Positions 29,660 to 55,559 of a stretch of 64,000 nucleotides of DNA are shown here, piece after piece. This stretch comes from an uncultured Verrucomicrobiae bacterium (GTDB taxonomy: Bacteria > Verrucomicrobiota > Verrucomicrobiia > Limisphaerales > Palsa-1400). Each line of letters opens with the position of its first letter. Position 1 is the stretch's first letter. A model generated the notes under the pieces. That model searched no databases, was not told the DNA's origin, and was given only the letters and a program-made list of their open reading frames with translations. A program made the translations under genes and the position numbers. Where the stretch lies: contig OY969763.1 of the NCBI GenBank assembly GCA_963702845.1, positions 1,504,001 to 1,568,000 of the forward strand, in the 5' to 3' direction.

Positions 29660-29940
29660 CCCACGTTTTTTGGTCGCACCGGATATGCGAGACGTTGCCG
29701 GAGCGCGCGCTTGCTTTGGGCGATTTTCGTCAGACCAAACGTCATTCGTTGTAATGATTGCTGCGATGGTATTCTTGATGTTCACAGTCCCGGGCAGTTT
29801 AAATATTGCAGTCATAGCAAACAGTGAGGATCGAACTCGCTCAAATAAATATCACAATATCATTAACTGACCCTGGTTTGACCGCTCCTCTTGCACTTTT
29901 CGTGCGTATAAGTCGGTGCGTATTCTCGTTTGTGAACCAA

Positions 29941-33829: not shown

Positions 33830-34210
33830 TACGCATCCTTGAAGCCATCGGCGAAGGGCGCTGTTTCGCGCTTTCCACTACGCCGGACGGCCGTACGACT
33901 TCGATTTCGACTTTTCAACCGACGCGAAATTGGTCTGCACCGAACTGGTCTAAAAATCCTACGAACCATCGACGGGCTGCACCGGCCTCAAATTCCCGCT
34001 GGTCGAAATGCTCGGTCGGCAGGTCACTCCCGCCAACGAATTGGCCAGACAGTTCGACGCTCAATTTGGAACCGGTGGATCAGCAGTTTGATGTCGTGGC
34101 GTTTCTGGATGGGAACGAAAAGCAGAAAAAAGCGGTTTTGGCGTCGGTGGACGAATTTCGACAGACCTGGAAACGGCCCAAATGGCACGTTTTTGTGCAG
34201 AAATAGCCCA
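33826..34210 (+). pseudogene. Degenerate duplicate of the 3' end of the YiiX-like gene (29192-29663)
   Basis: Near-identical DNA with an ~87 bp deletion, a TAC>TAA change, a 1-bp insertion and a few substitutions. Confidence 0.92.
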
Positions 34211-38726: not shown

Positions 38727-38940
38727 CGGAAGTTCGGTTTCTATCCAGACAGTTTGCCAAGGTCTGAAACGCCGTGTAAAGCAGCTGTGGTAATAAAGTT
38801 GAGTCCAATGAAGGCAATCTCATACCTCTTGCTATCGCGATGCGATACCAACCCGCGGATTCACGGCGGATGTTTCAGTGTTTGGGGCACACGTTCTAAA
38901 AAGCCCTTACATTTTCATCAAGCGGCTACATAGCGTTCAA

Positions 38941-39008
38941 AAGTCAAAAAAGGTCAACTAAAGGAAGTAAAAGGCAACAAAATCAGATTTTTTCAGTTTT
39001 AACAGTTT
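38941..39008. repeat. 10-bp phased A-rich array
   Basis: aagtcaaaaa/aggtcaacta/aaggaagtaa/aaggcaacaa followed by tcagattttt/tcagttttaa/cagttttc. Confidence 0.6.
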
Positions 39009-39104: not shown

Positions 39105-39179
39105 ATAAAATTCGAAACGAACTCAAAAGCTCAAATACAGATAAACCGCGAACTACGCGAAATATGCGAAAGGGTTTTT

Positions 39180-39366
39180 CATCGGCGCTGTGCGCGGTTG
39201 ATCGAGTGCCTGACGGCATTGCAGTACCGATCCGGCTCGGCCTGAGGATGTGGACAAAGTTGACGAAGAGGATGGAATCGGCGGAGACGACGCGGCGGAT
39301 GCGTTGAGGTATATGGTGGCGACGAAGTCGCGCGTAGTGGTTCAACGGAAGTTGAGGGGGTTGTGA
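39180..39366 (+). pseudogene. Terminase large subunit C-terminal remnant B
   Basis: HRRCARLIECLTALQY(fs)DPARPEDVDKVDEEDGIGGDDAADALRYMVATKSRVVVQRKLRGL*, with a TerL nuclease-type C..LI..L...D...DALRY motif. Confidence 0.8.
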
Positions 39367-39372
39367 ACTGGC

Positions 39373-39408: not shown

Positions 39409-40100
39409 TCATTCAAGGGGCCATCGAATCGGGTCAATGTCGCGCCGCTCAGCCCGCAGCTTGGCGATGATCTCATCGTAGTCGTGGTCCAGGACTACCG
39501 CCCTAACCTCTCCACGGACGGAGCGAACTGCCTCTAGGTTCTGCTCATAGAGTGTCGGATCGACGTAAAAGGTGCCGTCCCATCCGAGCGCAGACAAAAT
39601 ATCCCCGACTATGTAAATATCTTTCAGAGGATGTTGGCGTGCCTCGAGTGCGAGGCTCTGTTTTGGTATTCCGTGTGCAACGCCAGCAAGATACATGAGA
39701 GACTCGTAGTAGCGGTCGGTCGAGAAATCCAAGTAGATGCGATCCCGGAGCCATGCAGGAGGCGTCACTGATTCGAGCAAGAGAGGCAACACTACCTTGC
39801 TGCTTGTCTGCTTCTCCTTGGCGAACGCACTCGCCAATTCATCTTGGCACCATTCTGAATCCACAGACTTGGGCGAGAGCACAATTGCGACAAATTTTGA
39901 CGCATCCAGTCCGCGGCCAATTGAACGATGCAATGAATCGCCAACCTCTAGTTCCCATTCGTCAAACCAGACGTCGATTCCAAGACGCTGAGGTCGAGAA
40001 CAAGCTTGCGTGCGAATTCTTTGTCCTTGGAACTGTGACTCACGAATACATGAGGCTTCCGATCAGGATGACTCTCAAATGTTGGGCGTGCTACTGCCAT
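39409..40100 (-). CDS. TIR domain protein 1 (frameshift near 39991)
   Basis: MAVARP...VFVSHSSKDKEFARKLVLDL|QRLGIDVWFDEWELEVGDSL...IVLSPKSVDSEWCQDEL; one C missing. Confidence 0.85.
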
Positions 40101-40157
40101 AGGGGGCCGAGCCGGACGGGCCGCTGGTCAGAGGGGGCGTGAGCTTCCCAAAAAAAG

Positions 40158-40186
40158 TTGACAAACCGGCGTTGCGGCGCTAATCG
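40158..40186 (+). promoter_or_regulatory. Sigma70-type promoter of the FRG gene
   Basis: TTGACA-N17-TAATCG. Confidence 0.55.
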
Positions 40187-40279
40187 CACAAGGAAACTCT
40201 CCATCTTTAACGATTACTTATGGGGTTCGGTGGAAAGTTGTCATATATATATATAGCGCTAAAACGCACATCAACATTT

Positions 40280-41038
40280 ATGAATGATGGAATTACCTCA
40301 GGAGCTTGGACAGAGTTCCTCAACAAGATCAGAAAAGCAAAAAGCGCCTTAGGAAATCCAGATACGCTTTGGTATCGCGGTCATCCGAACTCTCAGTTTT
40401 ATCTGCTTGCCAATTTGCTCAGATATGAAAACGGGATCGAGAAGGAGCAGCAGCTATTCAATAGTTTTCAGAAGTTTGCTGACAGGATTTTGAAGCGTCG
40501 AGAGAGCGAATGGGAGACTCTTTTTGAGATGCAGCACTATGGCGTGCCAACTCGCTTGCTTGATTGGACGGAGACGTTTGGCATAGCGCTTTTCTTCGCC
40601 GCGACATATAACCAATCGCACCATCCCGACAAAGATGCGGCTGTTTACTTACTGAATCCTGTAGCTTTGAACAAAATTAGTGGAATCAACAAAGTTTATC
40701 GCGTGCCAAAAGATGAGGCCCGCTTCGGCTACACCAAAATCTATTGGCAGCAGGATCCATTCGCGGCCACCGCACCGATTGCCATCGAGCCTATTTTTAT
40801 TAATGATCGGATGTTGGCGCAGCGAGGTATGTTCACGGTTCATCACGACCAGATTGAGCCAATCGAAGAGCAATTCCCCAATGCCATCAAGAAGGTTATA
40901 CTGCCAAATAACGTCATCCCGGCAGCTCTAGAGTTTTTGGACCTTTCCAATATCACTCGGTATTCTGTGTTCCCAGATATTGCCGGCATCGCTGGCTATC
41001 TGAAGGGGACATCTGGGCTGGTTCCTCGATGGAAATGA
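40280..41038 (+). CDS. FRG domain protein 1
   Basis: WYRGH, MQHYGVPTRLLDWT, ALFFA, RMLAQRGMF, SVFPD. Confidence 0.92.
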   Translation: MNDGITSGAWTEFLNKIRKAKSALGNPDTLWYRGHPNSQFYLLANLLRYENGIEKEQQLFNSFQKFADRILKRRESEWETLFEMQHYGVPTRLLDWTETFGIALFFAATYNQSHHPDKDAAVYLLNPVALNKISGINKVYRVPKDEARFGYTKIYWQQDPFAATAPIAIEPIFINDRMLAQRGMFTVHHDQIEPIEEQFPNAIKKVILPNNVIPAALEFLDLSNITRYSVFPDIAGIAGYLKGTSGLVPRWK

Positions 41039-41115
41039 CAAACGCTCATAATTGCGGCGTTCAAAGCGGAGTCCAGAGGTTGCAAATCTCTGGCGTTCCG
41101 CCTTGTGGCGCGACA

Positions 41116-41203
41116 GGGGGATGGGGGGCGGCGGATGCGCTGCGGTGTTTGGTCGCGACGAAGCTGCGTGTCATCATGCAACGGAAGTTGAGGGGGGCTC
41201 TAA
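41116..41203 (+). pseudogene. Terminase large subunit C-terminal remnant C
   Basis: AADALRCLVATKLRVIMQRKLRG(L*), DNA clearly similar to 39290-39366. Confidence 0.8.
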
Positions 41204-41204
41204 G

Positions 41205-41385
41205 CGTTAGCACGCGGGGACTAGTGTCTATCTCTGCATCAACCAAACCGGCATCTTTCATCAGCGCAATCTGGTACGCCTCGCTGGGTGTTTGCGCCCA
41301 ATATCGCCCGTACCTCGCTGTCTTCAAAATCACGCGCCTCGGCCTTCTGAAGTATCTGCCGCACCAATTCCATGTCGCGTTTCAT
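41205..41385 (-). pseudogene. Truncated DUF2513-like gene
   Basis: MKRDMELVRQILQKAE...(fs) AYQIALMKDAGLVDA, cut off at terminase remnant C. Confidence 0.7.
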
Positions 41386-41401
41386 CGTAGTGTCCTGTGA
41401 G

Positions 41402-42310
41402 TTAATGATTCTCGTTCTCCTGGTCAATTTCTGCCAAAAGTAGCTCAATCACGTAGCTCCCAAGTTCCGTAGTTGTGTATCTCTGCCGATTCTCCAACCA
41501 TACAACGTCATCCGATATCAGGAAGGTTGGCGTAAAATGAGATTGTCTCAGTATTTTGAAGGGGTCGCTCTTGGAGATGCTCAATGTGAGTACCGATGCG
41601 TCATTATAAATGCCTCCCAAGCCGTGGAGTTCAACGAGCAGCGTCAAGCCGTGTCTTGCTCGCAACAAAATTTGTAACAGAGAGCCTTGTCCATGAAACG
41701 TGAGCCGTAACGACGCATGGGATTTGGAGATTTCTTCGGCTGTGCGTTGTACGGAACGGGATAATTCTGCGAACGCAGCCTGCACAAGAGAGACTCCTGC
41801 TTCGCTTTGTGACAGTCGCTCGTTGTTTTCCTTTTCCCGTAGATTGGCATCGACTGTTTTCGCTCGTTCAAGGGCCTTCGAAGGTTGGCTAACGCTTATC
41901 TTGCGTTCGGCAACGTCAATTGCGCGCTGAATCTCGAGGACAACACGGTCGATGCCATCGTTGGCGTTGACGGCCAGCCGGCCCGCAAGAATTGGCGAGA
42001 ATTTTCGGACGCCATCGAAAGCAATGTTTTTCCACACCGGCAGGATTACTTTTCGATTGGTCTCTTCCAGGGCAAAAAATCCATCGAGCTCATTTTGCGG
42101 CCATTTTTTTTGAAAAAACGCCGGACTCAAAACTACGACGCCGTAGTCGCATGATCGCAAGCCCTCGTTGATCTTTCCAGAAAGGCTGTCGCCAATCGTC
42201 AGCACGTATTTGTCGAACCAGACTTCATATATTGTTCTTAGACGGGCCGCCAATGGAGCAACGAAGTCCTGATCTTCCCAAGCGTAGCTGACGAATATAC
42301 GCGTCTTCAT
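41402..42310 (-). CDS. TIR domain protein 2 with unknown C-terminal domain
   Basis: IFVSYAWED, VWFD...IGDSL..KINEGL..CDYGVVVLSP..F.KKWPQNEL, ILPVW. Confidence 0.92.
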   Translation of the reverse strand: MKTRIFVSYAWEDQDFVAPLAARLRTIYEVWFDKYVLTIGDSLSGKINEGLRSCDYGVVVLSPAFFQKKWPQNELDGFFALEETNRKVILPVWKNIAFDGVRKFSPILAGRLAVNANDGIDRVVLEIQRAIDVAERKISVSQPSKALERAKTVDANLREKENNERLSQSEAGVSLVQAAFAELSRSVQRTAEEISKSHASLRLTFHGQGSLLQILLRARHGLTLLVELHGLGGIYNDASVLTLSISKSDPFKILRQSHFTPTFLISDDVVWLENRQRYTTTELGSYVIELLLAEIDQENENH

Positions 42311-42321
42311 CCTGTCAAAGG

Positions 42322-42609
42322 TTAAGCTGACTTAAGGTGGAAGATTATAGCGTCCGATAGGCTCAGCGTTCCAAGATAAGCGAGTCCAAGGGAATCCACT
42401 AAGGCTTCAAGGTGTTCCAATTGCGGCGGTGTGTTCGGTATTTTTTTGGCGAGTTCATCGCCTTTGCCCATGAACTTGATTCTAGATTCGTCGAGGGGTA
42501 TTCCGATGGCCTGCGACTCAAACCTTTGGATTATCAGGTGATTGTCCTCCGAATCCCATTCTTGGGTTATTTGCTTATCGCTGACATTAACGCACGCGGT
42601 GATCTTCAT
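42322..42609 (-). CDS. Hypothetical protein (95 aa)
   Basis: ORF ends 11 bp before TIR2; preceded on the minus strand by TTGACA-N17-CAGCCT-GAGGA-ATG. Confidence 0.55.
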   Translation of the reverse strand: MKITACVNVSDKQITQEWDSEDNHLIIQRFESQAIGIPLDESRIKFMGKGDELAKKIPNTPPQLEHLEALVDSLGLAYLGTLSLSDAIIFHLKSA

Positions 42610-42669
42610 TCCTCAGGCTGTGCGTCTTTGGCTGAAGCTGTCAAGTAACCGTTAGCATCTTGTGACGCG

Positions 42670-42772
42670 AACCCTGTCAAAATGTTTTTGTACAGAAAAA
42701 TGGCGCGTAGGGGCGAGGTGGGGCGTGGGCTTCAAAGGGCTTCGGAAAATTTTTCAAAAACAGGTGGTAAAA
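42670..42772. repeat. Conserved-end phased-array element, copy 1 (3 x 10 bp)
   Basis: AACCCTGTCAAAA..TTTTT..ACAGAAAAA [ggcgcgtagg ggcgaggtgg ggcgtgggct] CTTCGGAAAATTTTTCAAAAACAGGTGGTAAAA. Confidence 0.85.
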
Positions 42773-42886
42773 CTCGGGCGTGCGAGGAATTGGAGATTTT
42801 GAGATTTGAGATTTGAAATGGCGGGCGCGAAGTGCGCGAAGGGGCGAAGTCGTTAGCAGATAGCGAATAGCAGATAAATGGAGTCC

Positions 42887-42925
42887 GATAACGCAGCGTA
42901 TCCGCTGTGACTCAATCGCCCACCT
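42887..42925 (-). pseudogene. Highly degenerate terminase C-terminal remnant D
   Basis: ggtgggcgattgagtcacagcggatacgctgcgttat reads as GGD(D)TADTLRY when indels are allowed. Confidence 0.5.
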
Positions 42926-43268
42926 AAACAAATCGTGCAACATGATATCAGGCAACGCTCCACTTACCGCCGCGTTTTTCCAAAACTGCAGTCAGCATCG
43001 CAGAGTGCGCCCAGGGGCCGACGCCTGACCGAGGTTTGAAGGATCGGCGCGCAAGGCAGATGGATGTTGCCGTTGATCGTCGATCGGCAACGCAGCGATG
43101 CGTTTTCTTCGGCCAACTCTTTCGGCGTCGGGTTGCGGCCGGTATTTTGTTCAACGCGCAAGGGACTCTGCAGGAAGCGCGCCACCTATAAAACCCTTGT
43201 TCGCGTATTAAAAATATGTGCACAGTTGTCACATATTAATTGTCTAGGCCACTGCGCACACTTTCTTT

Positions 43269-44132
43269 ATGACCTACAAATACGATTTAGCCATTTCATT
43301 CGCAGGAGAGCAGCGTAGTCTGGCAGACACATTTGCGCGGCGCTTGGACGCATCTGGATATTCAGTCTTCTACGATGAGTTTCAACAAGCCGAGTTGTGG
43401 GGGCGAGACTTGTCGGTTGCCCTGAGCAGTGTCTATTCGCAGGAAGCCCGCTACTGCTTGATTGTGCTTTCCAAGGATTACGTGGCGAAGCCGTGGACCA
43501 ACCACGAACGCCAAAGTGCGATATCGCAGTTCATCCAACGCCGTAGGGACTACATCCTCTGCCTCAAAGTCGAAGACATTGAGTTGCCGGGTTTCCCAGC
43601 GGTCAACGGCTACATCTCTCTTGATCGATTCGACGTAGAAGCCATTTACAAGCTCCTCCTCCAAAAGCTTGGGCGCCCGGACCACGAAAACCAAGTTTCC
43701 CATCTCGACCCCGGCGACAGCGCAATTGCCCAACAGGTTATCGAGGCGTGTTTTCGACGCGCCATCTACACCCGAATGGATTCCGAGATCGACATGCGCT
43801 CCATGTATTACTCAATCGGAAAGGCCCTCGGCACGGTACAGCAACTGACGGCGCGGATTCGCGATCAGGCCCTCCAACATGCCTGTGGCGAGATCATTAT
43901 AGCTCTCGACGAAATAGAGCGCGCCCAGACTCGCTCTGATGCTGGAGTGTCGAATCACCTCCCACAACCCATCCGGCAGCAACTCGACCTAAGCAAACAA
44001 AAGGTTGTTCGCCTGCTTCTTGAGATCCGTCGCGCTACTAAGATTCCGATGCAGTTACCCTTCGCAATCCAGACCGACCATTTTTGGGGACCAGAGGAAG
44101 CCGATCAAAAACCGCGAGAGAACGCTGCCTAA
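43269..44132 (+). CDS. TIR domain protein 3 with helical C-terminal domain
   Basis: YDLAISFAGEQR, GYSVFYD...LWGRDL, YCLIVLSKDY..KPWTNHE. Confidence 0.92.
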   Translation: MTYKYDLAISFAGEQRSLADTFARRLDASGYSVFYDEFQQAELWGRDLSVALSSVYSQEARYCLIVLSKDYVAKPWTNHERQSAISQFIQRRRDYILCLKVEDIELPGFPAVNGYISLDRFDVEAIYKLLLQKLGRPDHENQVSHLDPGDSAIAQQVIEACFRRAIYTRMDSEIDMRSMYYSIGKALGTVQQLTARIRDQALQHACGEIIIALDEIERAQTRSDAGVSNHLPQPIRQQLDLSKQKVVRLLLEIRRATKIPMQLPFAIQTDHFWGPEEADQKPRENAA

Positions 44133-44142
44133 ACAATCGCGA

Positions 44143-44213
44143 GCCCAACCATCGTGCTGCGGTTGCCAGCCACGCGACCCGTGGGTCGCGCCGCTGAACT
44201 TGGGTCGTTAGCC
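44143..44213 (+). other. Integron attC-like site
   Basis: GCCCAAC (RYYYAAC) 10 bp after the TIR3 stop, internal CGCGACCC-GT-GGGTCGCG hairpin, ends GCTGAACTTGGGTCGTTAGCC (GTTRRRY-like); 71 bp. Confidence 0.65.
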
Positions 44214-44270
44214 CTCGTTCACAACCCCGTCGGCTGCATTGTTTAGGTCAATCTGGTCGGTGGAAATGAA

Positions 44271-46301
44271 TTATTCTCCTTTGCCCTTTCGGGCCTTTAT
44301 CACGTTGTCAACCTCCTCAAGGATTCCCATTTGTGCGCACGTCTTCCGAAAATATGCATTCTGCAAGGTGAGGTTGAACTGGTTCGACAGGTTCACCGCG
44401 TCAGTGAACCAAGGTAGCGTCGCTGCGTGCGGGGCATCCGTGTAGAAGCTCAAAATCATGCCCATCAAGTAACAAAACTCCGGTTCGAAAGCCGGGATCT
44501 TATCGACGACTTTGTCCACGTTCGACTCAATCTCCTCGCGAATCCGTAACAACATCTGTTTGTCTGTCGATGGGTCTTGGAATCCGACCATCAGGATCTT
44601 GAGATACTCCACGATGGTTTCAAGGTACTGCGGGACCCGATTGAGATCGGAGTAGTAATTCCCGGCTTCCTGGATGTGGCGAAAAGCCTCCAGAAAATCC
44701 TGGTGCTTTCTGGCGCCAATGGCGATGGCGAGCGCGCTAAGCGCCAAGAGGTGTGGCTCATGGTACTTTTGGGCGAGGCACCTCGCCCGGGCGGCATCAT
44801 CCAGGCCCGACGCAAGCACGGCGGGGTTGGAGTCGCGGAATTTGATCATGGCCCTGCGACTGAGCAGTTGAGAAAGCCGAGGTTCGTCCCACTCCCGTTC
44901 CATTTCGTAGATCGCGCGGTCCAGATACACCATCACATCGGCAAAATATACCAAGGCGTAAAAGGAATAGTAGTAGATGACATCGGCCCATTCGGTGGTG
45001 GTGGGCTGCCTGCGAAACAGGTCAGTCAGGCTTTTCGGAAAATCTTTGAAGAGGACGGGATTCGCGTTGTACGTCTGCACCAGGGCGAGCAACCCCAGCG
45101 TTTCCGGAGATGTGTTCCGCTCGTGGTGGAGGTTAAGCTTTGCAGGATTCGTCAGATATTGTTGAACTCCGTCCGGGGTTTCACCGAACGGAACCTGGAC
45201 GATGCTGACTTCTATGGCTTGGGCGCGTTGCACCTTGTTCTGGAAATTGAACGCGTACGACCGGCCATGATTAAGGAGAAATCGTTCCAGAGAATCGGTC
45301 TTGTAGTCCATCTGCTGCCGTTCTTTCCAGACCCGGTCGTAGAGGTACCGGGCGGCTGCCTCGTCCCCGTTCGCTTCCGCCAAAGCGAACATCATATTCG
45401 CCGCATCCATCGGGTTGAGAGCTTGAATCTTCTCCCGCAACCGTTCCGCAAGAGTTCGGAGTTCCCGATTCGGTGGCACAAACGGAGAACAGGGAATCGA
45501 GGCGTCCGTCAGTCTCGCTTCCAGGAACGTCGTCGCGTCCGCCTCGACAGCAGTGGCCTTTTCGGGGCCATAAAGGGCGATCAGTTCCCTGATGCTGTCC
45601 CGGACGCGGGTCGCAGGCTGGTGCAGAAAAGTGAATCCTCTCGCAAACAAAGCGGCGTCACGGAACCCCAAATAGTTCAGATTGTCATCGAAATCGGCGC
45701 CGGAAAACCCGGCAAACAGAAACAGGTGCTCGCTCAGCAAAGACGCCAATGCCCGTTCCAAGCTCCTGGCCCGGCCCTTAAGCCGTTGCTTGCGCGTGTC
45801 CACCATCGATTCGGGCGAGGAGCAACAGCCGTGGATCTTGATGACCGGAATCTCGCCGGGGGGCTGCTGCTCGAAGGCATTGAAATCCGCTTCGTTAATC
45901 AACGCACGAAACGGAACGCGCGCGTCGACAAATGCACGTTCGAAGTTCTGGTCAAAATTGGTCGTCACCACAGCTCTTATGAGCCCCGTGCGGGCTCCAT
46001 TGGCGGTATAATGATGGAAGGCATTGTAGAAGTCTGAGTCTACAACGGTGAGCAGGTCGAAGTATTTCATACCTACGCGTTCCACCATCACCTGCGCTTG
46101 ATAATCCGGAGGAAAGGCATATTGCTTTCTTTTCGCTTTGATATGACCGAACACATCGCCACGAACCCGGTCCGGCAGGTTGTAAGGGGTCATCCTGTCC
46201 CAAAGCGCCTCCAATATGGCATCGTTCAGGTCGAACCACCCCGGCAGAGAGGCAGGGGGCCCAACCGAGCAACCCGCACCAGCGAAGATCACAAGGCTCA
46301 T
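44271..46301 (-). CDS. SIR2-like (SIR2_2) domain protein with TPR-like helical C-terminus
   Basis: VIFAGAGCS...LPGW, VTTNFD, IKIHG, FAGFSGAD; helical repeats after about aa 300. Confidence 0.88.
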   Translation of the reverse strand: MSLVIFAGAGCSVGPPASLPGWFDLNDAILEALWDRMTPYNLPDRVRGDVFGHIKAKRKQYAFPPDYQAQVMVERVGMKYFDLLTVVDSDFYNAFHHYTANGARTGLIRAVVTTNFDQNFERAFVDARVPFRALINEADFNAFEQQPPGEIPVIKIHGCCSSPESMVDTRKQRLKGRARSLERALASLLSEHLFLFAGFSGADFDDNLNYLGFRDAALFARGFTFLHQPATRVRDSIRELIALYGPEKATAVEADATTFLEARLTDASIPCSPFVPPNRELRTLAERLREKIQALNPMDAANMMFALAEANGDEAAARYLYDRVWKERQQMDYKTDSLERFLLNHGRSYAFNFQNKVQRAQAIEVSIVQVPFGETPDGVQQYLTNPAKLNLHHERNTSPETLGLLALVQTYNANPVLFKDFPKSLTDLFRRQPTTTEWADVIYYYSFYALVYFADVMVYLDRAIYEMEREWDEPRLSQLLSRRAMIKFRDSNPAVLASGLDDAARARCLAQKYHEPHLLALSALAIAIGARKHQDFLEAFRHIQEAGNYYSDLNRVPQYLETIVEYLKILMVGFQDPSTDKQMLLRIREEIESNVDKVVDKIPAFEPEFCYLMGMILSFYTDAPHAATLPWFTDAVNLSNQFNLTLQNAYFRKTCAQMGILEEVDNVIKARKGKGE

Positions 46302-46391
46302 ATTTGTTTCATTAACTTCCTTTGAGGGCGCCGGCGGGAGGAAGGCGTCGCTCGATCCTCGAAAAGCGGTATCGCACGATGATCGTTCTAA

Positions 46392-47924
46392 TCAAGGGAT
46401 CCCAAACGTGATTAAATTCGCGGGATTGAACAGGATTGGCTGGCGGCCGATCGCCGCTTGAGACGGAATAACTTCTGTGGAAAAAATTTCCCGGAATCGG
46501 TTGAAGTCAAACATCAATCGCGGATTGTAAATCATTTTAAAATAATCACGGACGCTCTTAATCTTCTTGCGGAAATCCGGTTTGAGGAGCTCGTTCAGAT
46601 CCGGTCGAAGCGCGCGCCGGAGAGCGTCGAACGAAACATAACCCTTGGACCCGCAGCCATCGACGGCAGCAAAGCCCGCTTCCATGCCCGGTCCGCAGAA
46701 ATCAGCAAAGATCTTCATCTGGGTCCCACGGTCGGTGGTGCGAGCAAGGCCGTAGGCCATCAGTCCAATCGCGCCGCCACACGCCGTCGCGATTTCATCG
46801 TCGGAGTAAGGCAACCTTCGCATCCCGTTCCAAATAAGCCTAAGTGTGTCACAGAGAGTGTCCGCAGAGAGACTGTTGGCAGTCAACGGAACCGGAAGCG
46901 GTTGAACCATCCAATCAACCGCTTTGTTGCGGATCGTTCGATCGCTGCGCAAGACCTGTTGAACGCCGTACGTCACAGCCTGTTGTAGATCCCGCGGTGA
47001 CGTAATGGGTCTCAAGTTCAAACGCATGAGCGGCCCTTTTGTATCGTGGTACTTTTCGTCAATGGCCGCTCCCCATGGCTGGAGCTGCGATGGAGTCCAT
47101 GAATCGAGCGGAACCAGTATTTCTGGATTCAAAAACGCCTGTTCGTAGAAGCCGTTCGGAAAACTGTTCCACTTTACATAACTTCCTCCGGGGCCACCGT
47201 CCGCGCGCGACTTCGTCACCCATTCTCGCATTTGTTCATTGGAGAAAGTTAAATTCTCCAGGTCAAAGTACTGATCCAGCAATTGTTCGAGTGCACTCTT
47301 GTGCGCGGGATAGATGTCTTCCTTTGTGGGAAACGGTGGCGGACCAGTTCGGGGAAACACAATACGGTCCATGGGAAAATCAACCTCCCAATTATAAGTT
47401 GCGTAGATAAAAACACCATGCTGTGCCTGCAAGCGCCAGAGATTTCGGACGTCGAGCGTAATCAATTCGATGGCCGCGCCACGACGTTCATCCAAATCCT
47501 TCATTACGTCCCATACTTCCATCAACTCGCGCGTATCGAGGCAATAAATACATGCCGGGTGTTCGTCCGGCGCGGCTGTGGTGTCGGTGGCAAAAAAGCC
47601 AGCCACCCCGGGCTCGGTAGTGAAGTCAATGTAGCGGGTGGGGACGCCATAATGTTGGAGGATGGCAAAAAAGTTGTGCACAGAAGCCGCATCTTGCAAG
47701 TAGCGCAACGTCTCGTGATCGGCCAACCACTTATAGAACATTCTAATCCGGCGGTTGTAATGCTCCAAATCCGCGGGTTGCCACTGCGTTTGACGACGCA
47801 AAATCGAGGAGTGCGGCGGCCAGTCACGTACCTGTCCCCGAAACCAGTCATAGCGTCCCTCCTGCTTAAACTGCTGGGCCATTTCAACGGCTCTTTCTAC
47901 CGAATCAACTTCAAACGTTTCCAT
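46392..47924 (-). CDS. FRG domain protein 2 with long C-terminal extension
   Basis: WFRGQ, LQHYGVPTRYIDFT, AGFFA, RLQAQHGVF. Confidence 0.88.
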   Translation of the reverse strand: METFEVDSVERAVEMAQQFKQEGRYDWFRGQVRDWPPHSSILRRQTQWQPADLEHYNRRIRMFYKWLADHETLRYLQDAASVHNFFAILQHYGVPTRYIDFTTEPGVAGFFATDTTAAPDEHPACIYCLDTRELMEVWDVMKDLDERRGAAIELITLDVRNLWRLQAQHGVFIYATYNWEVDFPMDRIVFPRTGPPPFPTKEDIYPAHKSALEQLLDQYFDLENLTFSNEQMREWVTKSRADGGPGGSYVKWNSFPNGFYEQAFLNPEILVPLDSWTPSQLQPWGAAIDEKYHDTKGPLMRLNLRPITSPRDLQQAVTYGVQQVLRSDRTIRNKAVDWMVQPLPVPLTANSLSADTLCDTLRLIWNGMRRLPYSDDEIATACGGAIGLMAYGLARTTDRGTQMKIFADFCGPGMEAGFAAVDGCGSKGYVSFDALRRALRPDLNELLKPDFRKKIKSVRDYFKMIYNPRLMFDFNRFREIFSTEVIPSQAAIGRQPILFNPANLITFGIP

Positions 47925-47971
47925 AAAAGTGAAGTGGACTTGCAGGACTGGTGATGTGGCGATCCTCCCGA

Positions 47972-48802
47972 TTAACGTTTTGGCGGTGGAGGCGGATTTG
48001 GCGCACCAGGATTGCCGGCTGTCGGTCCGGGCGATTGCGGATTGGGACCGGGAGCAGGCTGGCTGGAGTTCGCGGTTTGCGGCACGGCATCAGCGCCAGA
48101 CTTCGGTTTCACGAAGAACACGTCAGCGATGTCTTTGAGTTTCAATACGGCGTTTTCACTGAACAGGCCGATCAGCGCTGCCAGAGCGCAAAAACCGAAC
48201 GGGCTGGTTTCACTAAAATTTGCCGTTGGCGAAAAGAAGCCGCCGCGAACGACAAAGTAAAAGATCGCGGCCAATCCTAATCCCATGAAAGGTCTCAAGT
48301 AATAATACAACAACCAGCTCGTCACAAAGCCACGGTTGCCCACATACCATGAAATTGACCGTAGAGCATGAACACAAGCTCCAAGCGCCCCCGCCAGGAG
48401 GACGAGCACAAAAAGCCGGGCGTCGTTGTACAGGACGAATTTCCGCCAAAACAGGCTGGCTTGCTGTGGGTCGTAATAGATGCTTTCTTCCCGCTCGGCA
48501 CCTTCACCAATCTTCGAGCCTTGAGTGTCATTACTGGTCGGAGATGTTATCCCGGGCGGAGGGACGCCGGAGGATTGCGCGTTGGTGGACGGGCCATGAA
48601 TCTGACTGGACTCAACGCGTTTGAGTCCACTGGGGGTCGGCCGAGGCCAAAGCGCGATAAAACAGTATACAATCAAAACAACGAGTAACGCGTAGGTGAT
48701 GCAAAGCAGCGCAAGATCGCCGACGGAGGCGAGCTCTTTTCCTGGTCCCTGGCCGGGTTTGAACACCGTAGGCGGGGGAGGGCCATATGATGGCGCGTTC
48801 AT
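47972..48802 (-). CDS. Four-TM membrane protein with Pro-rich tails
   Basis: LAGALGACVH...YVGNR...W..YY.LRP..G...A...Y...RGG, GLFS..A..KL; probable start MNAPSY. Confidence 0.75.
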   Translation of the reverse strand: MNAPSYGPPPPTVFKPGQGPGKELASVGDLALLCITYALLVVLIVYCFIALWPRPTPSGLKRVESSQIHGPSTNAQSSGVPPPGITSPTSNDTQGSKIGEGAEREESIYYDPQQASLFWRKFVLYNDARLFVLVLLAGALGACVHALRSISWYVGNRGFVTSWLLYYYLRPFMGLGLAAIFYFVVRGGFFSPTANFSETSPFGFCALAALIGLFSENAVLKLKDIADVFFVKPKSGADAVPQTANSSQPAPGPNPQSPGPTAGNPGAPNPPPPPKR

Positions 48803-48809
48803 AAGCGGT

Positions 48810-49007
48810 TCAGGATTGTTTCCAAAGTCGCAACGTCCACCCGTGCCATTCGGGTTCCGAGCTGTCCACGCGCTCAAGCGTTCCGATATCTTCCTTGTTC
48901 CATACAAGCAAGCACGCGTTTAGCGCGAGACGGCGGTCGTCAGCGCTTTTTGCGACGCGGCCAATGCTGGCTTCGTCGGTCATCCACAGGTCGGCAGTAT
49001 CGCTCAT
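48810..49007 (-). CDS. Small hypothetical protein (65 aa)
   Basis: Fills the gap between two co-oriented genes (15 bp and 7 bp spacers). Confidence 0.45.
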   Translation of the reverse strand: MSDTADLWMTDEASIGRVAKSADDRRLALNACLLVWNKEDIGTLERVDSSEPEWHGWTLRLWKQS

Positions 49008-49022
49008 AGTTTTTTTTGTGTT

Positions 49023-50159
49023 TTAGAACATTGCGTTTGTGTAAAAATGAACGGCTCCCTTTTCAGCACCGGTTTTAGCCGCATCGTTGTTGAGTTTCTT
49101 CAACTTCGCTTGGGCATCCTTTTGAAACTGTTCCAATTCAAGTTTGCGAGCTGCAGGCAATGCTGGTTGAGTGAGTTCTGCCGCGATCGCGTTTGCGTTA
49201 GAACGCAAAATTGCCCGGTACCGGCCAAATTCGTTATAATCTTTGGGAGCTGCGGCATTGACCACCGTGCTTTGCAGATTATGAGCAGCGGGTGGTGGAG
49301 GTGTAGTGAACTGAAGATAGGAGGCAGGGATAAACGAGCCAAGATTATTGAGGGCATCGACCTGTTCTTTCGCGCGAGGGTCGCCGTTAGCAGCGGCGGC
49401 CTGCAAGCGCGAATAGACATGGTTCAAAATCGTTTCATCGTGGATAGCGGAATCCGTGCGCGTGCCAACAGCGCCGGAAATCGCCATGGAATCGAGGGCG
49501 GCCTTTATCTGCGGGTTTCCCGCTGCGATTTCGGCGGCTTTGCCTGTGGCAAAGGATTGTTTTATGCGCACACCACCGTTGTTCGGGAAATTGGTGGTAA
49601 TGCCTGTTTCATTGGTGGTTGAATTGACGGTAATATCGGCATATACGGACCGGACTTCCGCCTCGGACTCTTCGACAGGTATGATCGTGCCCTCCACCCG
49701 TTTATACCCGAGCAGAAACGTGGGACTTACGTCCTGTTTGCCCGCAGAAATCTTCAGCCCGAAACTTGTATCGGTCACGAAGAAGAGCGGATCTTGGCCG
49801 GTGGTTGAATTCCTGCATGGACAGCCCGCCCCGGCGTCAGCAACCGGAGGCGTAGAACGAGCAGCGATTTGCGCGGCTTTGCCGGTAGCAAACGTCTGGC
49901 GAATCGTGTATTTGGGCGGAAACCATTTCATGTCCGCATCGAGGCCGCCGTAAACAGAGTACGGATCGCCAGTGGTGCTGCGTGGGACGATGGCGCCTTC
50001 GTATCGGCTAGTAGAGAGGGAGACTTTGTCGGGCATTTGGGCTGTGCCCGACACTTCCATACCGATGGATGTTTTCGTTGCGAAGAAGAGGCGGGGAGCG
50101 CATCCGGTATGGATCAGAAGCCCCAAACAGATTATTGCATTTGCGATTATTGTTTTCAA
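49023..50159 (-). CDS. Putative lipoprotein with internal duplication
   Basis: Signal ending HTG-C; repeated motifs LFFxTxTSxG...R.EG.I.P...SVY...I.Q.FATGKAA. Confidence 0.75.
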   Translation of the reverse strand: MKTIIANAIICLGLLIHTGCAPRLFFATKTSIGMEVSGTAQMPDKVSLSTSRYEGAIVPRSTTGDPYSVYGGLDADMKWFPPKYTIRQTFATGKAAQIAARSTPPVADAGAGCPCRNSTTGQDPLFFVTDTSFGLKISAGKQDVSPTFLLGYKRVEGTIIPVEESEAEVRSVYADITVNSTTNETGITTNFPNNGGVRIKQSFATGKAAEIAAGNPQIKAALDSMAISGAVGTRTDSAIHDETILNHVYSRLQAAAANGDPRAKEQVDALNNLGSFIPASYLQFTTPPPPAAHNLQSTVVNAAAPKDYNEFGRYRAILRSNANAIAAELTQPALPAARKLELEQFQKDAQAKLKKLNNDAAKTGAEKGAVHFYTNAMF

Positions 50160-50788
50160 TGAGATGTAATGGAGTGGATTGAATAGTTGAAGTCGGGAAC
50201 TGACGGAGAAAAATTATATTCGACATCGCCGCTGACGTTCTCATCGAGAACGGTCGTCAAGGTCGTTTTCGAGATACCGATTTTGAGGTTAGGGTCGGCA
50301 TTGGCGACGCGAAGGCAGCCGCCCTTGACGCTGTTCACAAGAAGCCGCACGTGATTGTTCTCGCGCGGGATGCGGTAATGGACGAAGCCCAAATACCAGC
50401 CGTTGACATTGCCAAAGCCGAAGCCCGAGGGCGCGAGAAAACGGTTGGTGGCAGAATTAGAGAGCACGAATCCGCGCGCCTGCTGTTGCCAACCTAATGC
50501 GGCTTCGATTCCCACCGGAATGACGGCAAGATCAAACGGGGCGGTTTGGGTCTTTTCCTTGGCCAAAACCGTTCTGTAGTCCAAGGGTCTCAATTCGACG
50601 GTGTGACGGGACAGTCCCATCGACCAGGTATCGCCGGCGGCTGATTCGAATCGAAAGGCACAGCCGGCGCAGGAAGTTACAACTAGAAGCAGGCTGAAAA
50701 TAGAAGCTTTGGTGAAAGCAACCGACCGGAACGGGGTTGCTGTTCTGGATGAAAACCGATTGCTACATTTTCTCCGCTCATCACTCAT
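50156..50788 (-). CDS. Putative lipoprotein
   Basis: LLLVVTSCAGC lipobox-like segment; 4-bp overlap with the next gene; start uncertain. Confidence 0.55.
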   Translation of the reverse strand: MSDERRKCSNRFSSRTATPFRSVAFTKASIFSLLLVVTSCAGCAFRFESAAGDTWSMGLSRHTVELRPLDYRTVLAKEKTQTAPFDLAVIPVGIEAALGWQQQARGFVLSNSATNRFLAPSGFGFGNVNGWYLGFVHYRIPRENNHVRLLVNSVKGGCLRVANADPNLKIGISKTTLTTVLDENVSGDVEYNFSPSVPDFNYSIHSITSH

Positions 50789-51119
50789 TCCGTAAGCTCC
50801 GGTTTCAGTATTGCTGACAACAATACGCCATCGACAGGTCGAGCCCGTCCTGATTGTCGATCCGCCTCGCTGACATTCTAGGTATTTTGACAATCGTTCG
50901 CCCGTGAATATGCATTGCTGTATTTGACTGCGCGCGGACGTTAACAACGAATGCACGGAATAGGCAAGAGTTTAATTGACAGCCTTTGCTTATGCATCGA
51001 AACCGGAGATATCAGGTTACTGATTTTCGGTTCTATGTTATTATTCTAGTCTGTTTCTTAATCAGACAGCCACTGAGACGAAATTGCGGTCAAATACGGT
51101 GGGGGTTACATACGCGATA

Positions 51120-51326
51120 TCATTCGTTGGTTTTGACCAAACGGATATCCATGACATCATCGGGATTGAAAGCTTCATCGGTTTGACAATCTTCACCGTT
51201 GAACACTAATGCGTTCTCAATGAGATGATTGTTTTTCAGGACCAAGGTTACCCTCTGGTAACCCATTCCCGACTCGGGCATCTGTGCCAGACGCTGGCTC
51301 CAGAATTTGTTGAGGCGGATGATCAT
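51120..51326 (-). CDS. Small PExGMGYQ-motif protein (putative antitoxin/partner)
   Basis: MIIRLNKFWSQRLAQMPESGMGYQRV...; starts 1 bp after the upstream stop. Confidence 0.75.
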   Translation of the reverse strand: MIIRLNKFWSQRLAQMPESGMGYQRVTLVLKNNHLIENALVFNGEDCQTDEAFNPDDVMDIRLVKTNE

Positions 51327-51327
51327 C

Positions 51328-52095
51328 TTATCTGTCCGGGATGGTCGTTGGTCCGGCAACTGTGCCATCGGGCAGCCCCAGAACAAAGATCACTTCTTCA
51401 CCACCTCCGGGCTGATTGTTAGCGGGTTGCACAGTTCCACGTTTAACCTCCGAATCCTTCGCCGGTGAGATAGTGAACACGTTGCTTGCCGGCTTGCTGT
51501 TTGGCAGCGCATATCGTGCGACCGCATCTGTTCCGGTACGAACGTGCGCATCCGCGTCCTGCTTTGTCGTCGCGAACGTTCCCGGAGTAAGGCCTTTGCC
51601 TGAAGTGACGCGTATGTCGTTGGCGTACTGCGAAAAGCGTTTAAATATTTCGTTTTCTACGGTCAATGTAACCGGGGCTGTTTCAGCAGCCGCGCTTTTA
51701 GCACATAAGGAAAAGTTCTGGGCTTCCGCGAGTAAGGTGGTGCGCGTATTTCCCAATGCGTAACTGGCCTGACTTTCTTTCCGGTTTGCCAGAACTCGGA
51801 ATTTCTCGTTTGCGAAGACTACTTGGCGCACTCCTTTCAGCGTTTCGGGTTCGCGGGGTATAAGTGTTACATTCTTTACTATCAACCTCGATTTCCTCGC
51901 CTCGGTAAGGATGTAATTCCAATTTCCGAACATGTGGTAAGGGTAATCGTCCCGTTTCAAAAAAACCTGGCTGTTGACTACTATTCCTGATTCTGTTCCA
52001 CCGGTGTTCAAAGTGGCGATCACCTTTTGGTAGCCCATGCGATACTCAGGTTGTTTAGACAACCAATATTCCAACCATCCTTCTAGTGGCAGCAT
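51328..52095 (-). CDS. PExxMGYQ N-terminal domain plus C-terminal TNT-like toxin domain
   Basis: QPEYRMGYQKV; C-terminal FKRFS...GTFAT...RYALP...GTVQPANNQPGGGEEV. Confidence 0.7.
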   Translation of the reverse strand: MLPLEGWLEYWLSKQPEYRMGYQKVIATLNTGGTESGIVVNSQVFLKRDDYPYHMFGNWNYILTEARKSRLIVKNVTLIPREPETLKGVRQVVFANEKFRVLANRKESQASYALGNTRTTLLAEAQNFSLCAKSAAAETAPVTLTVENEIFKRFSQYANDIRVTSGKGLTPGTFATTKQDADAHVRTGTDAVARYALPNSKPASNVFTISPAKDSEVKRGTVQPANNQPGGGEEVIFVLGLPDGTVAGPTTIPDR

Positions 52096-52297
52096 GGGGA
52101 GTTGATAAGCGCGTGCGTACGATAACGCAATCCGTTTTCGCGAGATTTCGACGCTCATGCGGCGACAGCGTTCTTAAAGCGAGTACGACTAACGAAGGGA
52201 CATTGACAGTCACGGACGATCATGGGAACGAATTATTACGGGGACGCTTTCGCGTGGCCGCTGGGCTAATTTCTGTAACCCCTTCGGGGTATTTCAA

Positions 52298-52419
52298 AAC
52301 CCTGTCAAAAGTTTTTGCACAGAAAAATGGCGTGCAGGGGCGTTGTGGTGCGCGGCGAGGCGTGCTGGTGCGTGGTGGGTTTTGAGCTTCGGAGGAATTT
52401 TCAAAAACATGTGATAAAA
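52298..52419. repeat. Conserved-end phased-array element, copy 2 (5 x 10 bp)
   Basis: Same ends as 42670; units ggcgtgcagg ggcgttgtgg tgcgcggcga ggcgtgctgg tgcgtggtgg. Confidence 0.88.
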
Positions 52420-52444
52420 AGGTTCGCGTGAGTGCGACCAGGAA

Positions 52445-52568
52445 AACCCTGTCAAAACTTTTTTTCACAGAAAAACTGCATGTCCGTGCATGTTCCTGCA
52501 ACTCCCTGCATGTTGGTGCATGTCGGTTTAGGGACTTCGGAAAAATTCTCAAAAACATGTGCTAGAAA
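52445..52568. repeat. Conserved-end phased-array element, copy 3 (5 x 10 bp, different unit)
   Basis: Same ends; units tgcatgtccg tgcatgttcc tgcaactccc tgcatgttgg tgcatgtcgg. Confidence 0.88.
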
Positions 52569-52727
52569 TCTACGCATGAAAAAGAACCATCAGTTTATCA
52601 AGAGGCCGGCGAAGCCGGTGGCGCATCCACAGTCGAATAAGCAAGCTGCGGATTCTCAACGCAAACGTGCCGCACAGAATAGGGTGCAAGTCGGCCAGTG
52701 TGAGCCATCTTCAAAAAACTGCCCGAA

Positions 52728-52767
52728 TGTCGCATGGTTTCGCTTTGTTTCGCGTGGCTTCGCTAGA
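52728..52767. repeat. 10-bp phased array (TCGC core)
   Basis: tgtcgcatgg tttcgctttg tttcgcgtgg cttcgctaga. Confidence 0.7.
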
Positions 52768-52890
52768 CGCCTGGCGGCGAAACTCTCACACTATACACAC
52801 ATGAAAGAGACATCGCGTTCGACCAACTACCTGTCGCGCCGAAGTCAGACGCAGGCGGATCAACCCTCAACCATTAACTTGTTTTAACCA

Positions 52891-53262
52891 ATGCATTCTA
52901 CAGACACAAAATCAAAGTTCCTCGAGTTCCGCGGCAAAGGCTGGAGCCTTGCCCGCATCGCAAAACAAATCGATGTCAGCGTCCGCACCTTGGCCGACTG
53001 GAACCAGCAACACCGCCAGGAAATACGCACGCTCCGCGCCATCGATATCGAAGCTCTTCAGGAAAAGTTTCTCGCCACCCACGAGCAGGAGCTCAGTTCT
53101 CTCACCGCCCAACTCCAGCGCATCGAGCAAGCGATCGGCGACAGCAAACTCCAATTCGTCGAAACTAAAGACTTATTCCGACTGGCTGCCGTGACCCGCG
53201 CCGAAATCCGCAAAGTCATCATACCCACGGAGCCGGATGATAAATCGCATGCACAAAACTAA
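52891..53262 (+). CDS. Small HTH protein with coiled-coil C-terminus
   Basis: GWSLARIAKQIDVSVRTLADW HTH motif. Confidence 0.82.
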   Translation: MHSTDTKSKFLEFRGKGWSLARIAKQIDVSVRTLADWNQQHRQEIRTLRAIDIEALQEKFLATHEQELSSLTAQLQRIEQAIGDSKLQFVETKDLFRLAAVTRAEIRKVIIPTEPDDKSHAQN

Positions 53263-53265
53263 AAT

Positions 53266-53636
53266 TGCATCGTTTCTGCATCATTTTTGCATCATTTCCC
53301 AAATGGAGGCCGTTACAAAATCCAGCGGCGGTCACGTTTGGTCACGTTCGGTCATGTTCAGTCATCTTTGGTCACGCGCGCCCATTGCTTGCGTCCTTCT
53401 TGTCGCGCCGGAGCGCCGCGGGAAGGCGGACGCGCCCGTCGCGCAAAATCCATTACCGGTCAAATTCGGTAAAGAAAAGGTAAAGAAACAGTAAAGTTTT
53501 GCCCCTCGTAAAATGAACACGGTTCAAACGAAAAAACGTACAGAAAATGTACAGAGAGGTTCAGTTTTCGGTTCACGCCTGAAAAACCGTGAAAAAGGTA
53601 ACGGGAGGTAATCAGAAGTAATCGGAGGTAATCCGT
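53266..53636. repeat. Cluster of five different 10-11 bp phased arrays
   Basis: TGCATC x3 (53266, period 11); GTCAC/T x5 (53331, period 10); GTAAAG x3 (53469, period 11); GTACAG/GTTCA x4 (53538); GTAA x4 (53597, period 10). Confidence 0.82.
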
Positions 53637-53678
53637 GCTATGCTGCGTTCAACCCAAATCACTCATCACTCATCACGT

Positions 53679-55178
53679 TCAATTTTCGCCGGGGTCGGTT
53701 TTCCAGGGCTTTTGGTTGAAATCGGATTGGGGCAGGCGGTCGGGGATGTTGATTTTGGGCAGGTAGGTTGCGAGGTGTTTTTTGATGGGCAGGCTTTCAG
53801 GTTTGGAGGCGATGTTGGTCCATTCCTTTGGGTCGGCTTGTTCGTCGTAGAGTTCTTCATCGCCGTTGGCGTAGCGAATGTAGCGCCATTGATCGGTGCG
53901 GACAGCGTGATTGTTCGGCCCGTAGGTGCTGATGGCGGGACGGTCCCACGGGGCTTCTGGATTTTTTAGCAGCCCAATGAAGCTGATGCCTTCGAGAGTG
54001 TTCGGGGTTTGCAGCCCGCACAGTTCCGTCATGGTTGGGTAAATATCCAGGAAACTGACGATGCGGGAACAGCGCTGGTTGGGTTTAGTCAGGCCGGGGA
54101 CGACGAACGCGAGCGGGACGTGGGTGGCTTCTTCCCAGAGGACGTGTTTTTGCCAGTGCAACTTTTCGCCGAGGTGCCAACCGTTATCGCTCCAGAGTAC
54201 GATGAGTGTGTTGGTGGCATATGGGCTTTTGTCAAAGGCGTCGAGCACGCGGCCGACGCAGGCGTCGGAGAAGCTGCACGTGGCCAGATAAGCTTGCACG
54301 GCGCTTTTCCAAAGATGGTTGGTGACAATCATCTGGTGGTTGCCGGCTTTGAGGCCCGGCGCCTGGTTGGCCCAGAGTTTTCCGGTCGGCGGCAAATCGG
54401 AAACGTCATCTTCTTTTATTTCCGGCAAAACGATTTTGTCGAGCGGATGCATGTCGAAATATTTTTGCGGGACACGCAAGGGGATGTGCGGTTTGAAAAA
54501 ACCGACAGCGAGGAAGAGCGGACGATCATTGGTTTCGGCCAGATGACGCACGGCCCAGTTGGCGATTTTCATGTCCGACATCTGGTCGTCGGTGGCGGGG
54601 AGCGGTCCCCAGCCGAACGGCTTTTTCTTCGCGTCCGGATCGCGCGGCGCTTTGACGTCGTCGAGGGGAATTGGAAAGTATTCCTCCCACGATTTGGGAT
54701 CCGAGCTGTGATTTTGGATGTCGAAAACCTTGCCGCCGCCGAGCACGCGATAACCATTGGCGCGAAAGTATTGTGGGAGCGTCACCACATTGGGAATGAA
54801 TTTGCGAAAGCGATGTTGGTTGCCATAGACGCCGGTGGTGGATGGCCGCAGGCTCGTGACCAGCGCGATCCGCGACGGATTGCAGAGGGGCGCGGCGCAG
54901 TAGGCATGGGTGAAGAGCATGCCGCGTTTGGCGAGGCGATCGATGTTCGGTGTGCTGGCCTGCGGATGAACGCCGAGCGCGCCGACCCAACAGTTCATAT
55001 CATCAACGGCGATGAAGAGGACGTTTGGCTTCGTCGCCGCGTGAATTGAAACCGCAAGCAGCAGCAGGAGAATGGAGACGGCGTGAACCGCCCGTTTGAC
55101 GGCTATGGCTGGAAAGTGGCGAGAACGTTGGTGCACTGAGCAGAACGTAATATCTGATTCGCCCGTTTGACAATACAT
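53679..55178 (-). CDS. Sulfatase (S1, iduronate-2-sulfatase-like)
   Basis: PNVLFIAVDDM, TPNIDRLA, CNPSR, KPHIP, SDNGWHLGEK, EELYD...DPKEW; start uncertain. Confidence 0.93.
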   Translation of the reverse strand: MYCQTGESDITFCSVHQRSRHFPAIAVKRAVHAVSILLLLLAVSIHAATKPNVLFIAVDDMNCWVGALGVHPQASTPNIDRLAKRGMLFTHAYCAAPLCNPSRIALVTSLRPSTTGVYGNQHRFRKFIPNVVTLPQYFRANGYRVLGGGKVFDIQNHSSDPKSWEEYFPIPLDDVKAPRDPDAKKKPFGWGPLPATDDQMSDMKIANWAVRHLAETNDRPLFLAVGFFKPHIPLRVPQKYFDMHPLDKIVLPEIKEDDVSDLPPTGKLWANQAPGLKAGNHQMIVTNHLWKSAVQAYLATCSFSDACVGRVLDAFDKSPYATNTLIVLWSDNGWHLGEKLHWQKHVLWEEATHVPLAFVVPGLTKPNQRCSRIVSFLDIYPTMTELCGLQTPNTLEGISFIGLLKNPEAPWDRPAISTYGPNNHAVRTDQWRYIRYANGDEELYDEQADPKEWTNIASKPESLPIKKHLATYLPKINIPDRLPQSDFNQKPWKTDPGEN

Positions 55179-55559
55179 TTGGCTTTGGGGCGGCGACTAT
55201 GTAGTTCACAGCACGGAAATTGATGCGTAGGTGCGTCGGCAGGAGGGTTGTAGGAAGTGATTTTAGAATTCGTCTTCATCGGTGGTGATTTTGGAACTGT
55301 GCTTGGTTGCGAATCCATTGGGATGGTGGGGTTTTTGTATGAAAAGGAAGTAGCATCTTGTCAACGTATGGTAGTGACAACCTAATCGTATCTTGTAGGA
55401 CAAGTTGGTGAACTGCTACAGACGGGTCGGGGTTTCCATCACTCTGCGCTACGGAAAGCTCTTGTTGTGCGCGCGTGAACGGAGGTAAAAGCGAGGATAG
55501 TCACTCTGCCGGAACGAGTCGTTCAAAGTTGAGCTGAGCGGTTCGTTCGGGAAGAGAGG

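Follow-up and report, generated by a model that had tools for sequence, protein, structure and literature searches.

A phased-repeat element as probable late promoter of tailless integrated elements in Pedosphaerales

Which function keeps both ends of a short DNA element fixed while the repeats between them are exchanged? This question is raised by a 64,000-nucleotide stretch of the genome of an uncultured Verrucomicrobiae bacterium (assembly GCA_963702845.1, contig OY969763.1, positions 1,504,001 to 1,568,000; hereafter the window), in which an initial annotation had noticed three copies of an element with constant flanks around a core of 10-bp repeats. We propose that this 135-base repeat element is probably an activator-dependent late promoter. 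It would serve tailless integrated phage-like elements of Pedosphaerales, in which it lies before portal and scaffold genes and before some excisionase genes. Its position before start codons, its anatomy, the phasing of its units and the co-variation of its cores within one integrated element can be read directly from the DNA, and they point to transcription from the element.

All three copies and both flanks were found where they had been placed, with copies 2 and 3 lying 147 bp apart (Table 1), and their similarity exceeds chance (E=3.4e-11 for copy 1 against copy 2 and E=1.4e-9 for copy 2 against copy 3; blastn against the genome). The counts of three, five and five units also hold, with GGCG-type units in copies 1 and 2 and TGCATG units in copy 3. 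So does the 10-bp period: in 32 pooled cores (six of 38 regions were unanchored by the pattern, and three of the 32, copy 1 included, were anchored on a wrong GTCAA, their true spacings being 92, 124 and 124), identity at lag 10 was 0.426 against 0.275 after shuffling (z=15.5), identities at lags 9 and 11 lay under background, and copy 3 was called period 10 by TRF. Our data support the initial description of A/T-tract arms that are fixed and enclose units lying on one face of the helix. The claim that inverted repeats are lacking needs only a small correction: the copies have no true terminal inverted repeats of an insertion sequence (IS) end or a miniature inverted-repeat transposable element, but by eye the A/T tracts give the two arms of copy 2 a pseudo-inverted match of 13/17. 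A covariance-model search of 40000-56000 against Rfam, a check that had been suggested, gave nothing overlapping the copies at E<=5. An RNA stem-loop was rejected, because the three copies fold no better than their shuffles (z -0.14, -0.47 and -1.63; not significant).

The 6.03-Mb genome holds at least 24 copies: iterated nhmmer gave 20, and four diverged ones, located upstream of prophage genes, were recognised by eye. It also contains five integrated elements (P1 to P5), 29-58 kb in size, with tRNA or tmRNA 3' ends directly repeated at their borders (att). P1, annotated with PHROGs, encodes integrase, repressor, excisionase, exonuclease, helicase, primase, the terminase subunits TerS and TerL, portal, scaffold, major capsid and adaptor proteins; no tail genes were found among the 18 P1 proteins scanned. 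Within these five, the repeat element precedes the portal gene in four, the scaffold gene in three and the excisionase gene in all three that have a detected one, where it sits between the repressor and excisionase genes (P1/P3/P4 lineage). Up to three copies occur per integrated element, each of them tied to a start codon. The P4 portal gene has no such copy and is preceded by a TTCGC-type array (G000:C1:141900-141955) like the one at window position 52730-52764. Outside the five full elements, terS-terL pairs (G000:C1:2814199-2816187 and 6002578-6004682) are each followed by a 10-bp array, and several terL 3' stubs lie elsewhere in the genome.

Among 301 genomes of the order, the scaffold query matched 53 and the portal query 41. 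Relatives were collected through protein anchors, not by nucleotide search, and the portal and scaffold loci comprise the best 30 per search plus hand-picked regions; blastn of copies 2-3 against 300 genomes of the order returned two marginal matches. GenBank phages gave no match to window 52290-52585, and IMG/VR yielded one weak portal match only. The portal set consists of 53 regions minus five duplicates and minus L154, a slicing artefact, leaving 47; the too-short locus L113 is also out.

Across Pedosphaerales, GTCAA lies between -123 and -130, counted from the start codon, in 32 of the 47 distinct portal-upstream regions. The right end of these 32 promoters carries TG-n-TA in 31, and in 27 of the 31 the TA precedes the start codon by 12-13 nt; T stands at hexamer position 6 in 18 of the 32. 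No ribosome-binding site is present in the element. This geometry is likely that of an extended -10 box from which a leaderless transcript would begin. Many tRNA promoters of the genome are of the ordinary TTGNN-17-TAnnnT form (by eye), and a genome-wide motif scan revealed no clear case of host genes that use the layout of the element. Of 34 scaffold loci, 15 have the element in front of the gene (the scaffold nhmmer profile was trained on two of these 15), and it is found in none of the 16 where the upstream gene abuts the scaffold start (abutting judged by eye). None of six terS-upstream regions viewed by eye contains a copy.

The core between these ends is made of five 10-bp units in fixed phase, which start 25-26 nt past GTCAA. 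Their sequence varies about (T/G)GCRYG or TTCGYG, and in many cases the third unit is weak. Portal and scaffold cores of the same integrated element have 0.233 of their 5-mers in common, compared with 0.101 across elements (12 pairs; 0/20,000 permutations as high) and 0.081 for shuffled partners, while the arms show no k-mer excess within elements (0.061 vs 0.068). The scaffold promoter is the longer one in 12/12 pairs, by about one helical turn in 11 and by two in one, and these different spacings identify the two promoters as old paralogues whose cores changed together. Such joint change is expected if one element-specific protein reads both promoters, and it upholds, between integrated elements, the switchable specificity that had been suggested for the core. 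The other half of that suggestion, co-variation with the neighbouring helix-turn-helix (HTH) protein, is not borne out by the sequences: the core does not track the 123-amino-acid HTH protein encoded behind copy 3, since identical HTH proteins (genome positions 812791 and 1556891) follow different cores, and a relative (G027) carries the repeat element and no detected HTH homologue.

The left end is more puzzling. Its bottom-strand sequence, TTGAC(A/G), resembles host -35 boxes, and its distance to the TA of the -10 box is quantised in whole-turn steps (92, 110-116, 122-125 or 133 bp). A leftward, divergent sigma70 promoter was rejected, because a TA partner 16-18 nt beyond the bottom-strand TTGAC occurs in 0/32 portal promoters. 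Forward TTGAC is equally missing from these 32 inverted-type promoters and was not seen at the element in a scan of 52150-53700. Five further portal promoters do have forward TTGAC, 17-18 nt before TA, and none of these five retains the inverted site or the TG extension. They keep the orientation and phase of the core (12/13 motifs at phase 7-8, compared with 55/61 at 6-8 in the inverted type), which argues against their origin by inversion and against an invertible switch; both were rejected. On the portal tree the forward cases occupy five positions, of which well-supported branches force at least four. An extended -10 box is able to replace a -35 box; the loss of the upstream inverted site alongside the TG extension is the unexplained part.

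The following mechanism would account for this architecture. An element-specific small protein would bind the five units cooperatively along one helix face, at about -54 to -100, and the bound array together with the A/T tracts would bend the DNA. Binding would switch on a leaderless extended -10 promoter that has no normal -35 box, and bending would let the far-upstream inverted TTGAC take part. Since the array lies upstream of the polymerase footprint, activation appears more plausible than repression. A bolder, rather unlikely version is a split promoter, in which an array-driven U-turn presents the bottom-strand TTGAC to region 4 of sigma70 as the missing -35 box, while the extended -10 box opens on the other arm. 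The U-turn would give the inverted hexamer normal -35 polarity, and in portal promoters (array about -99 to -54, hexamer -127 to -122) the hexamer is calculated to lie near the point to which a -35 box would be mirrored about the centre of the array; the fit is looser in scaffold promoters. A TTGAC without its own -10 box (0/32), shifted only by whole turns and gone whenever a forward -35 box is present (5/5), fits such a promoter, but the inverted TTGAC would be accounted for equally well if it were an ordinary activator site or what is left of a divergent promoter.

Which protein might read the array? Among 14 elements with early regions, only terS and terL were found in every one; excisionase was found in 12. 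The recognition helix of TerS is highly variable between elements, and its neighbouring residues are conserved. Similarity of cores correlates weakly with similarity of this helix (Mantel r 0.17-0.32, p 0.008-0.065, n=16 or 14, for a helix window chosen post hoc), and the rest of TerS does not follow core similarity. We treat this link as a lead only, because the window was picked after the pattern had been seen and clear exceptions exist. The HTH-bearing TerS of each element is the leading, if weakly indicated, candidate binder. If a TerS ring reads the array, a packaging protein would double as late activator.

Several observations weigh against a late promoter driven by such an activator. 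The last T of the -10 box is missing in 14/32 portal promoters and in all three window copies, and 10/47 portal regions fit neither the inverted-TTGAC nor the forward-TTGAC type. The forward cases themselves may be swaps of one promoter type instead of independent origins. Three scaffold promoters follow right behind the portal stop codon with no cargo between, so that interruption of the gene order cannot explain every occurrence. Positionally, the arms are slightly closer within elements (0.39 vs 0.33 and 0.38 vs 0.32, p 0.003-0.007), and part of the core concordance may therefore reflect shared ancestry or gene conversion. The connection to TerS is weak in partial Mantel tests (r 0.12-0.30, p 0.011-0.127), P1 and P3 have a common core despite different TerS helices, and P3 and the relative G172 have a common helix despite different cores. 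No Ltr-like activator was identified among the 18 P1 proteins scanned.

In the window (Table 1), the order terL stub, cargo, copy 1 equals the order terL, cargo, repeat element that is found before portal genes, and 9.5 kb of the cargo is flanked by direct copies. The window copies are likely relics of a terL-cargo-portal interval, whose promoter now heads a dispersed HTH mini-unit. Copy 1 is likely a decayed or orphan promoter, since only a 9-codon frame follows it; its spacing is two turns below the usual one. Copy 2 has a REP-like hairpin immediately to its left (52250-52292), and similar hairpins lie left of several other copies. The ~65-bp repeat recurs at three portal promoters in this genome, where it stands immediately upstream of the element and is oriented oppositely to it. 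A 10-bp phased A-rich array lies just left of the terL stub (38940-38985). Further away, a direct repeat of ~350 bp with 95-98% identity (29311-29663 and 33857-34210) encloses a 4.2-kb stretch, and 55560-64000 is occupied by a large repetitive surface-protein-like gene, which is broken at 61592 and whose ~954-bp units then run on in other frames.

Table 1. Positions of the repeat element copies and accompanying features in the window.
Feature	Position	Strand	Description
terL (terminase large-subunit gene), 3' stub	39175..39367	+	
Cargo	39409..52158		three TIR, two FRG and one SIR2-like domain genes, and proteins without Pfam hits
Copy 1	42669..42784	+	inverted TTGAC (GTCAA 42676-42680); three 10-bp units 42700-42729; extended -10 TGG-TAAAAC, TA at 42768; GTCAA-TA spacing 92 bp
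Separate ~65-bp repeat	43177..43243		
Copy 2	52297..52430	+	GTCAA 52304; five units 52327-52376; TGA-TAAAAA, TA 52415; spacing 111; GTG 7 nt past hexamer
Copy 3	52444..52578	+	GTCAA 52451; five TGCATG-type units 52475-52524; TGC-TAGAAA, TA 52563; spacing 112; ATG 7 nt past hexamer
Leader, copy 3 to HTH gene	52576..52890	+	contains second 10-bp array 52730-52764
123-amino-acid protein gene	52891..53262	+	N-terminal HTH, then long helices
HTH unit tail	53266..53633	+	five further 10-11-bp repeat arrays, own unit each

The mini-unit is 1.2-1.35 kb long (window 52297-53633) and consists of the repeat element, a leader, the 123-amino-acid HTH gene and the tail arrays. A 103-codon frame in the leader was rejected as a gene; it is likely non-coding because it shows no consistent third-position bias across three copies. 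The HTH protein has seven homologues in the genome, none of them within the five intact elements. In fold comparison it matches HTH only (best Z 7.2), with the TerS of G20c reaching Z 5.8 at a root-mean-square deviation of 8.2; BFVD gave no match at E<=0.001, the PDB no sequence match, and no relative was found in IMG/VR. Judged by eye in the window and in loci L013-L051, the type of array immediately past the HTH gene seems to go with the clade of the protein: several close homologues (>=49% identity) are followed by TGCA/TGCC 11-mers, several distant ones by GGTAAA 11-mers. The arrays of the tail may be sites of the HTH protein itself. Other HTH copies are preceded by a second type of head, a sigma70-like promoter followed by three GGT-loop hairpins, which also starts at CCTGTCAA (G000:C1 2104481-2104810, 2550914, 3260289 and many copies at 3.12-3.26 Mb); in the genome G002, a site orthologous to one of these carries the phased-repeat head instead. 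A Thermoleophilia record (L048:2292-2383) has GTCAA, T and A tracts and five GTGCAG units upstream of an HTH gene, a layout which suggests that the design may extend outside Verrucomicrobiota.

Other functions could be served by phased repeats before capsid genes. Packaging is the alternative that survives best, and we consider it unlikely: the repeat element would be a pac site overlapping a promoter, a TerS ring would wrap the array and the A-tract arms, TerL would cut close by, and packaging would be redirected to chromosomal cargo by dispersed copies accompanied by a TerS-like HTH gene. The terminase subunits as sole genes common to 14/14 elements and the weak co-variation of core and TerS helix would both suit this model, and 10-bp arrays do follow terL at genome positions 2814199 and 6002578. 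The HTH family of the dispersed unit weakly matches a terminase-small-subunit profile in 28/54 members (best E 1.7e-7), but it gives no alignment with the elements' own TerS (hhalign probability 0.1%). A pac site is not expected in up to three start-codon-linked copies per element, nor to be exchanged for a plain promoter, as in five loci, nor to go unseen upstream of terS. In the account of PMC4737164, the SPP1 pac contains direct repeats and spans promoters, an overlap that keeps packaging among the rivals, while the TerS domain of SF6 is described there as little specific for the repeats.

The array might also be an operator block, at which a repressor or an Apl/Cox-type excisionase silences the promoter and no activator is involved. 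We think this distinctly unlikely. It is supported by the location between repressor and excisionase genes in three elements of the genome and by similar hexamers, two or three of them at 10-bp distance, that were noticed by eye near attR of P1 and P3; Apl, according to PMC7498355, binds one-turn direct repeats between early promoters and bends DNA. The array, however, lies upstream of -54 and overlaps neither a -35 nor a -10 box, P2 and P5 bear the promoter and no detected excisionase homologue, and nine of 12 excisionase-upstream regions lack the full element (by eye).

That the element is a recombination or mobile-element end (att, IS or cassette), which sets the point of cargo insertion and looks like a promoter incidentally, is very unlikely. 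The copies abruptly cease to be homologous 7-9 nt left of GTCAA, beside unrelated cargo, sister elements differ by cargo plus repeat element between portal and scaffold, direct copies bracket 9.5 kb of cargo in the window, and PeSL cassettes are reported to shuffle modules by recombination (PMC2839356). None of the five units inspected is flanked by a target duplication, the units contain no transposase, true terminal inverted repeats are absent, and an end would be expected to show neither a fixed spacing to start codons nor a swap for ordinary promoters. Even so, copies may undergo homologous exchange as a side effect. A partition centromere (parC-like) or origin iterons, as first suggested from the phased 10-bp repeats and AT-rich flanks, are hardly credible, because no partition or initiator gene follows and the element, with its promoter anatomy, precedes capsid genes at fixed distance from the start codon, several times per integrated element.

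An activator-dependent late promoter would provide a late-gene control element for widespread tailless integrated elements of Pedosphaerales. The dozens of natural variants, with their conserved frame and element-specific arrays, make the specificity between activator and array testable in a simple reporter. Standard promoter models do not account for the invariant inverted TTGAC at whole-turn spacing; if it is indeed a looped-in -35 box, this would be a new way of building a bacterial promoter. The dispersed copies furthermore hint that induction of a resident element could act on HTH units in the chromosome and on defence-like cargo. We found no prior description of the element in the literature searched, which comprised main texts, mostly of papers available without subscription.

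Phage-inducible chromosomal islands that form capsids are integrated and have capsid and terminase genes but apparently no tail. The integrated elements that host the repeat element resemble them in this gene content, and differ in being 29-58 kb long, rich in cargo and located in Verrucomicrobiota. At the promoter level, the Cox boxes of P2 are direct repeats one helical turn apart. The Apl arrays of coliphage 186 (PMC7498355) likewise combine one-turn direct repeats at phage promoters with a cooperative small DNA-bending protein, but as described there Apl represses and overlaps early promoters and att, whereas our array is found upstream of its promoter and for the most part near head genes. 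The pac sites of SPP1 and SF6, as portrayed in PMC4737164, share with our case direct repeats and bent DNA over a packaging-module promoter as well as an HTH small terminase; they span the terS promoters once per genome, whereas the repeat element is unseen at terS and recurs within an integrated element. The PeSL cassettes of T4-type phages (PMC2839356) are repeated promoter cassettes beside variable cargo, like ours, yet in that description they consist of consensus -35 and -10 boxes, a stem-loop and a Shine-Dalgarno sequence, in contrast to an element without forward -35 box, significant fold or ribosome-binding site.

The Ltr activators (RinA/ArpU/LtrC) are described in PMC3753634 as binding phage-specific direct repeats upstream of the late promoter and thereby activating the late operons of Gram-positive siphophages. 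As in those promoters, the direct repeats studied here lie upstream of late packaging and head genes and, judged from the sequence, are specific to each element. The Ltr promoter of that account is single and stands before terS behind the ltr gene, whereas the present one occurs before portal, scaffold and sometimes excisionase genes, and for this reason it is not a member of the Ltr class. It also differs from the Ltr promoters portrayed there in its predicted leaderless transcript, its exact 10-bp period and its invariant inverted TTGAC at whole-turn spacing. By analogy, the Ltr family would be the closest functional precedent, and the repeat element likely represents the repeat-activated type of phage late promoter with one anomalous conserved feature.

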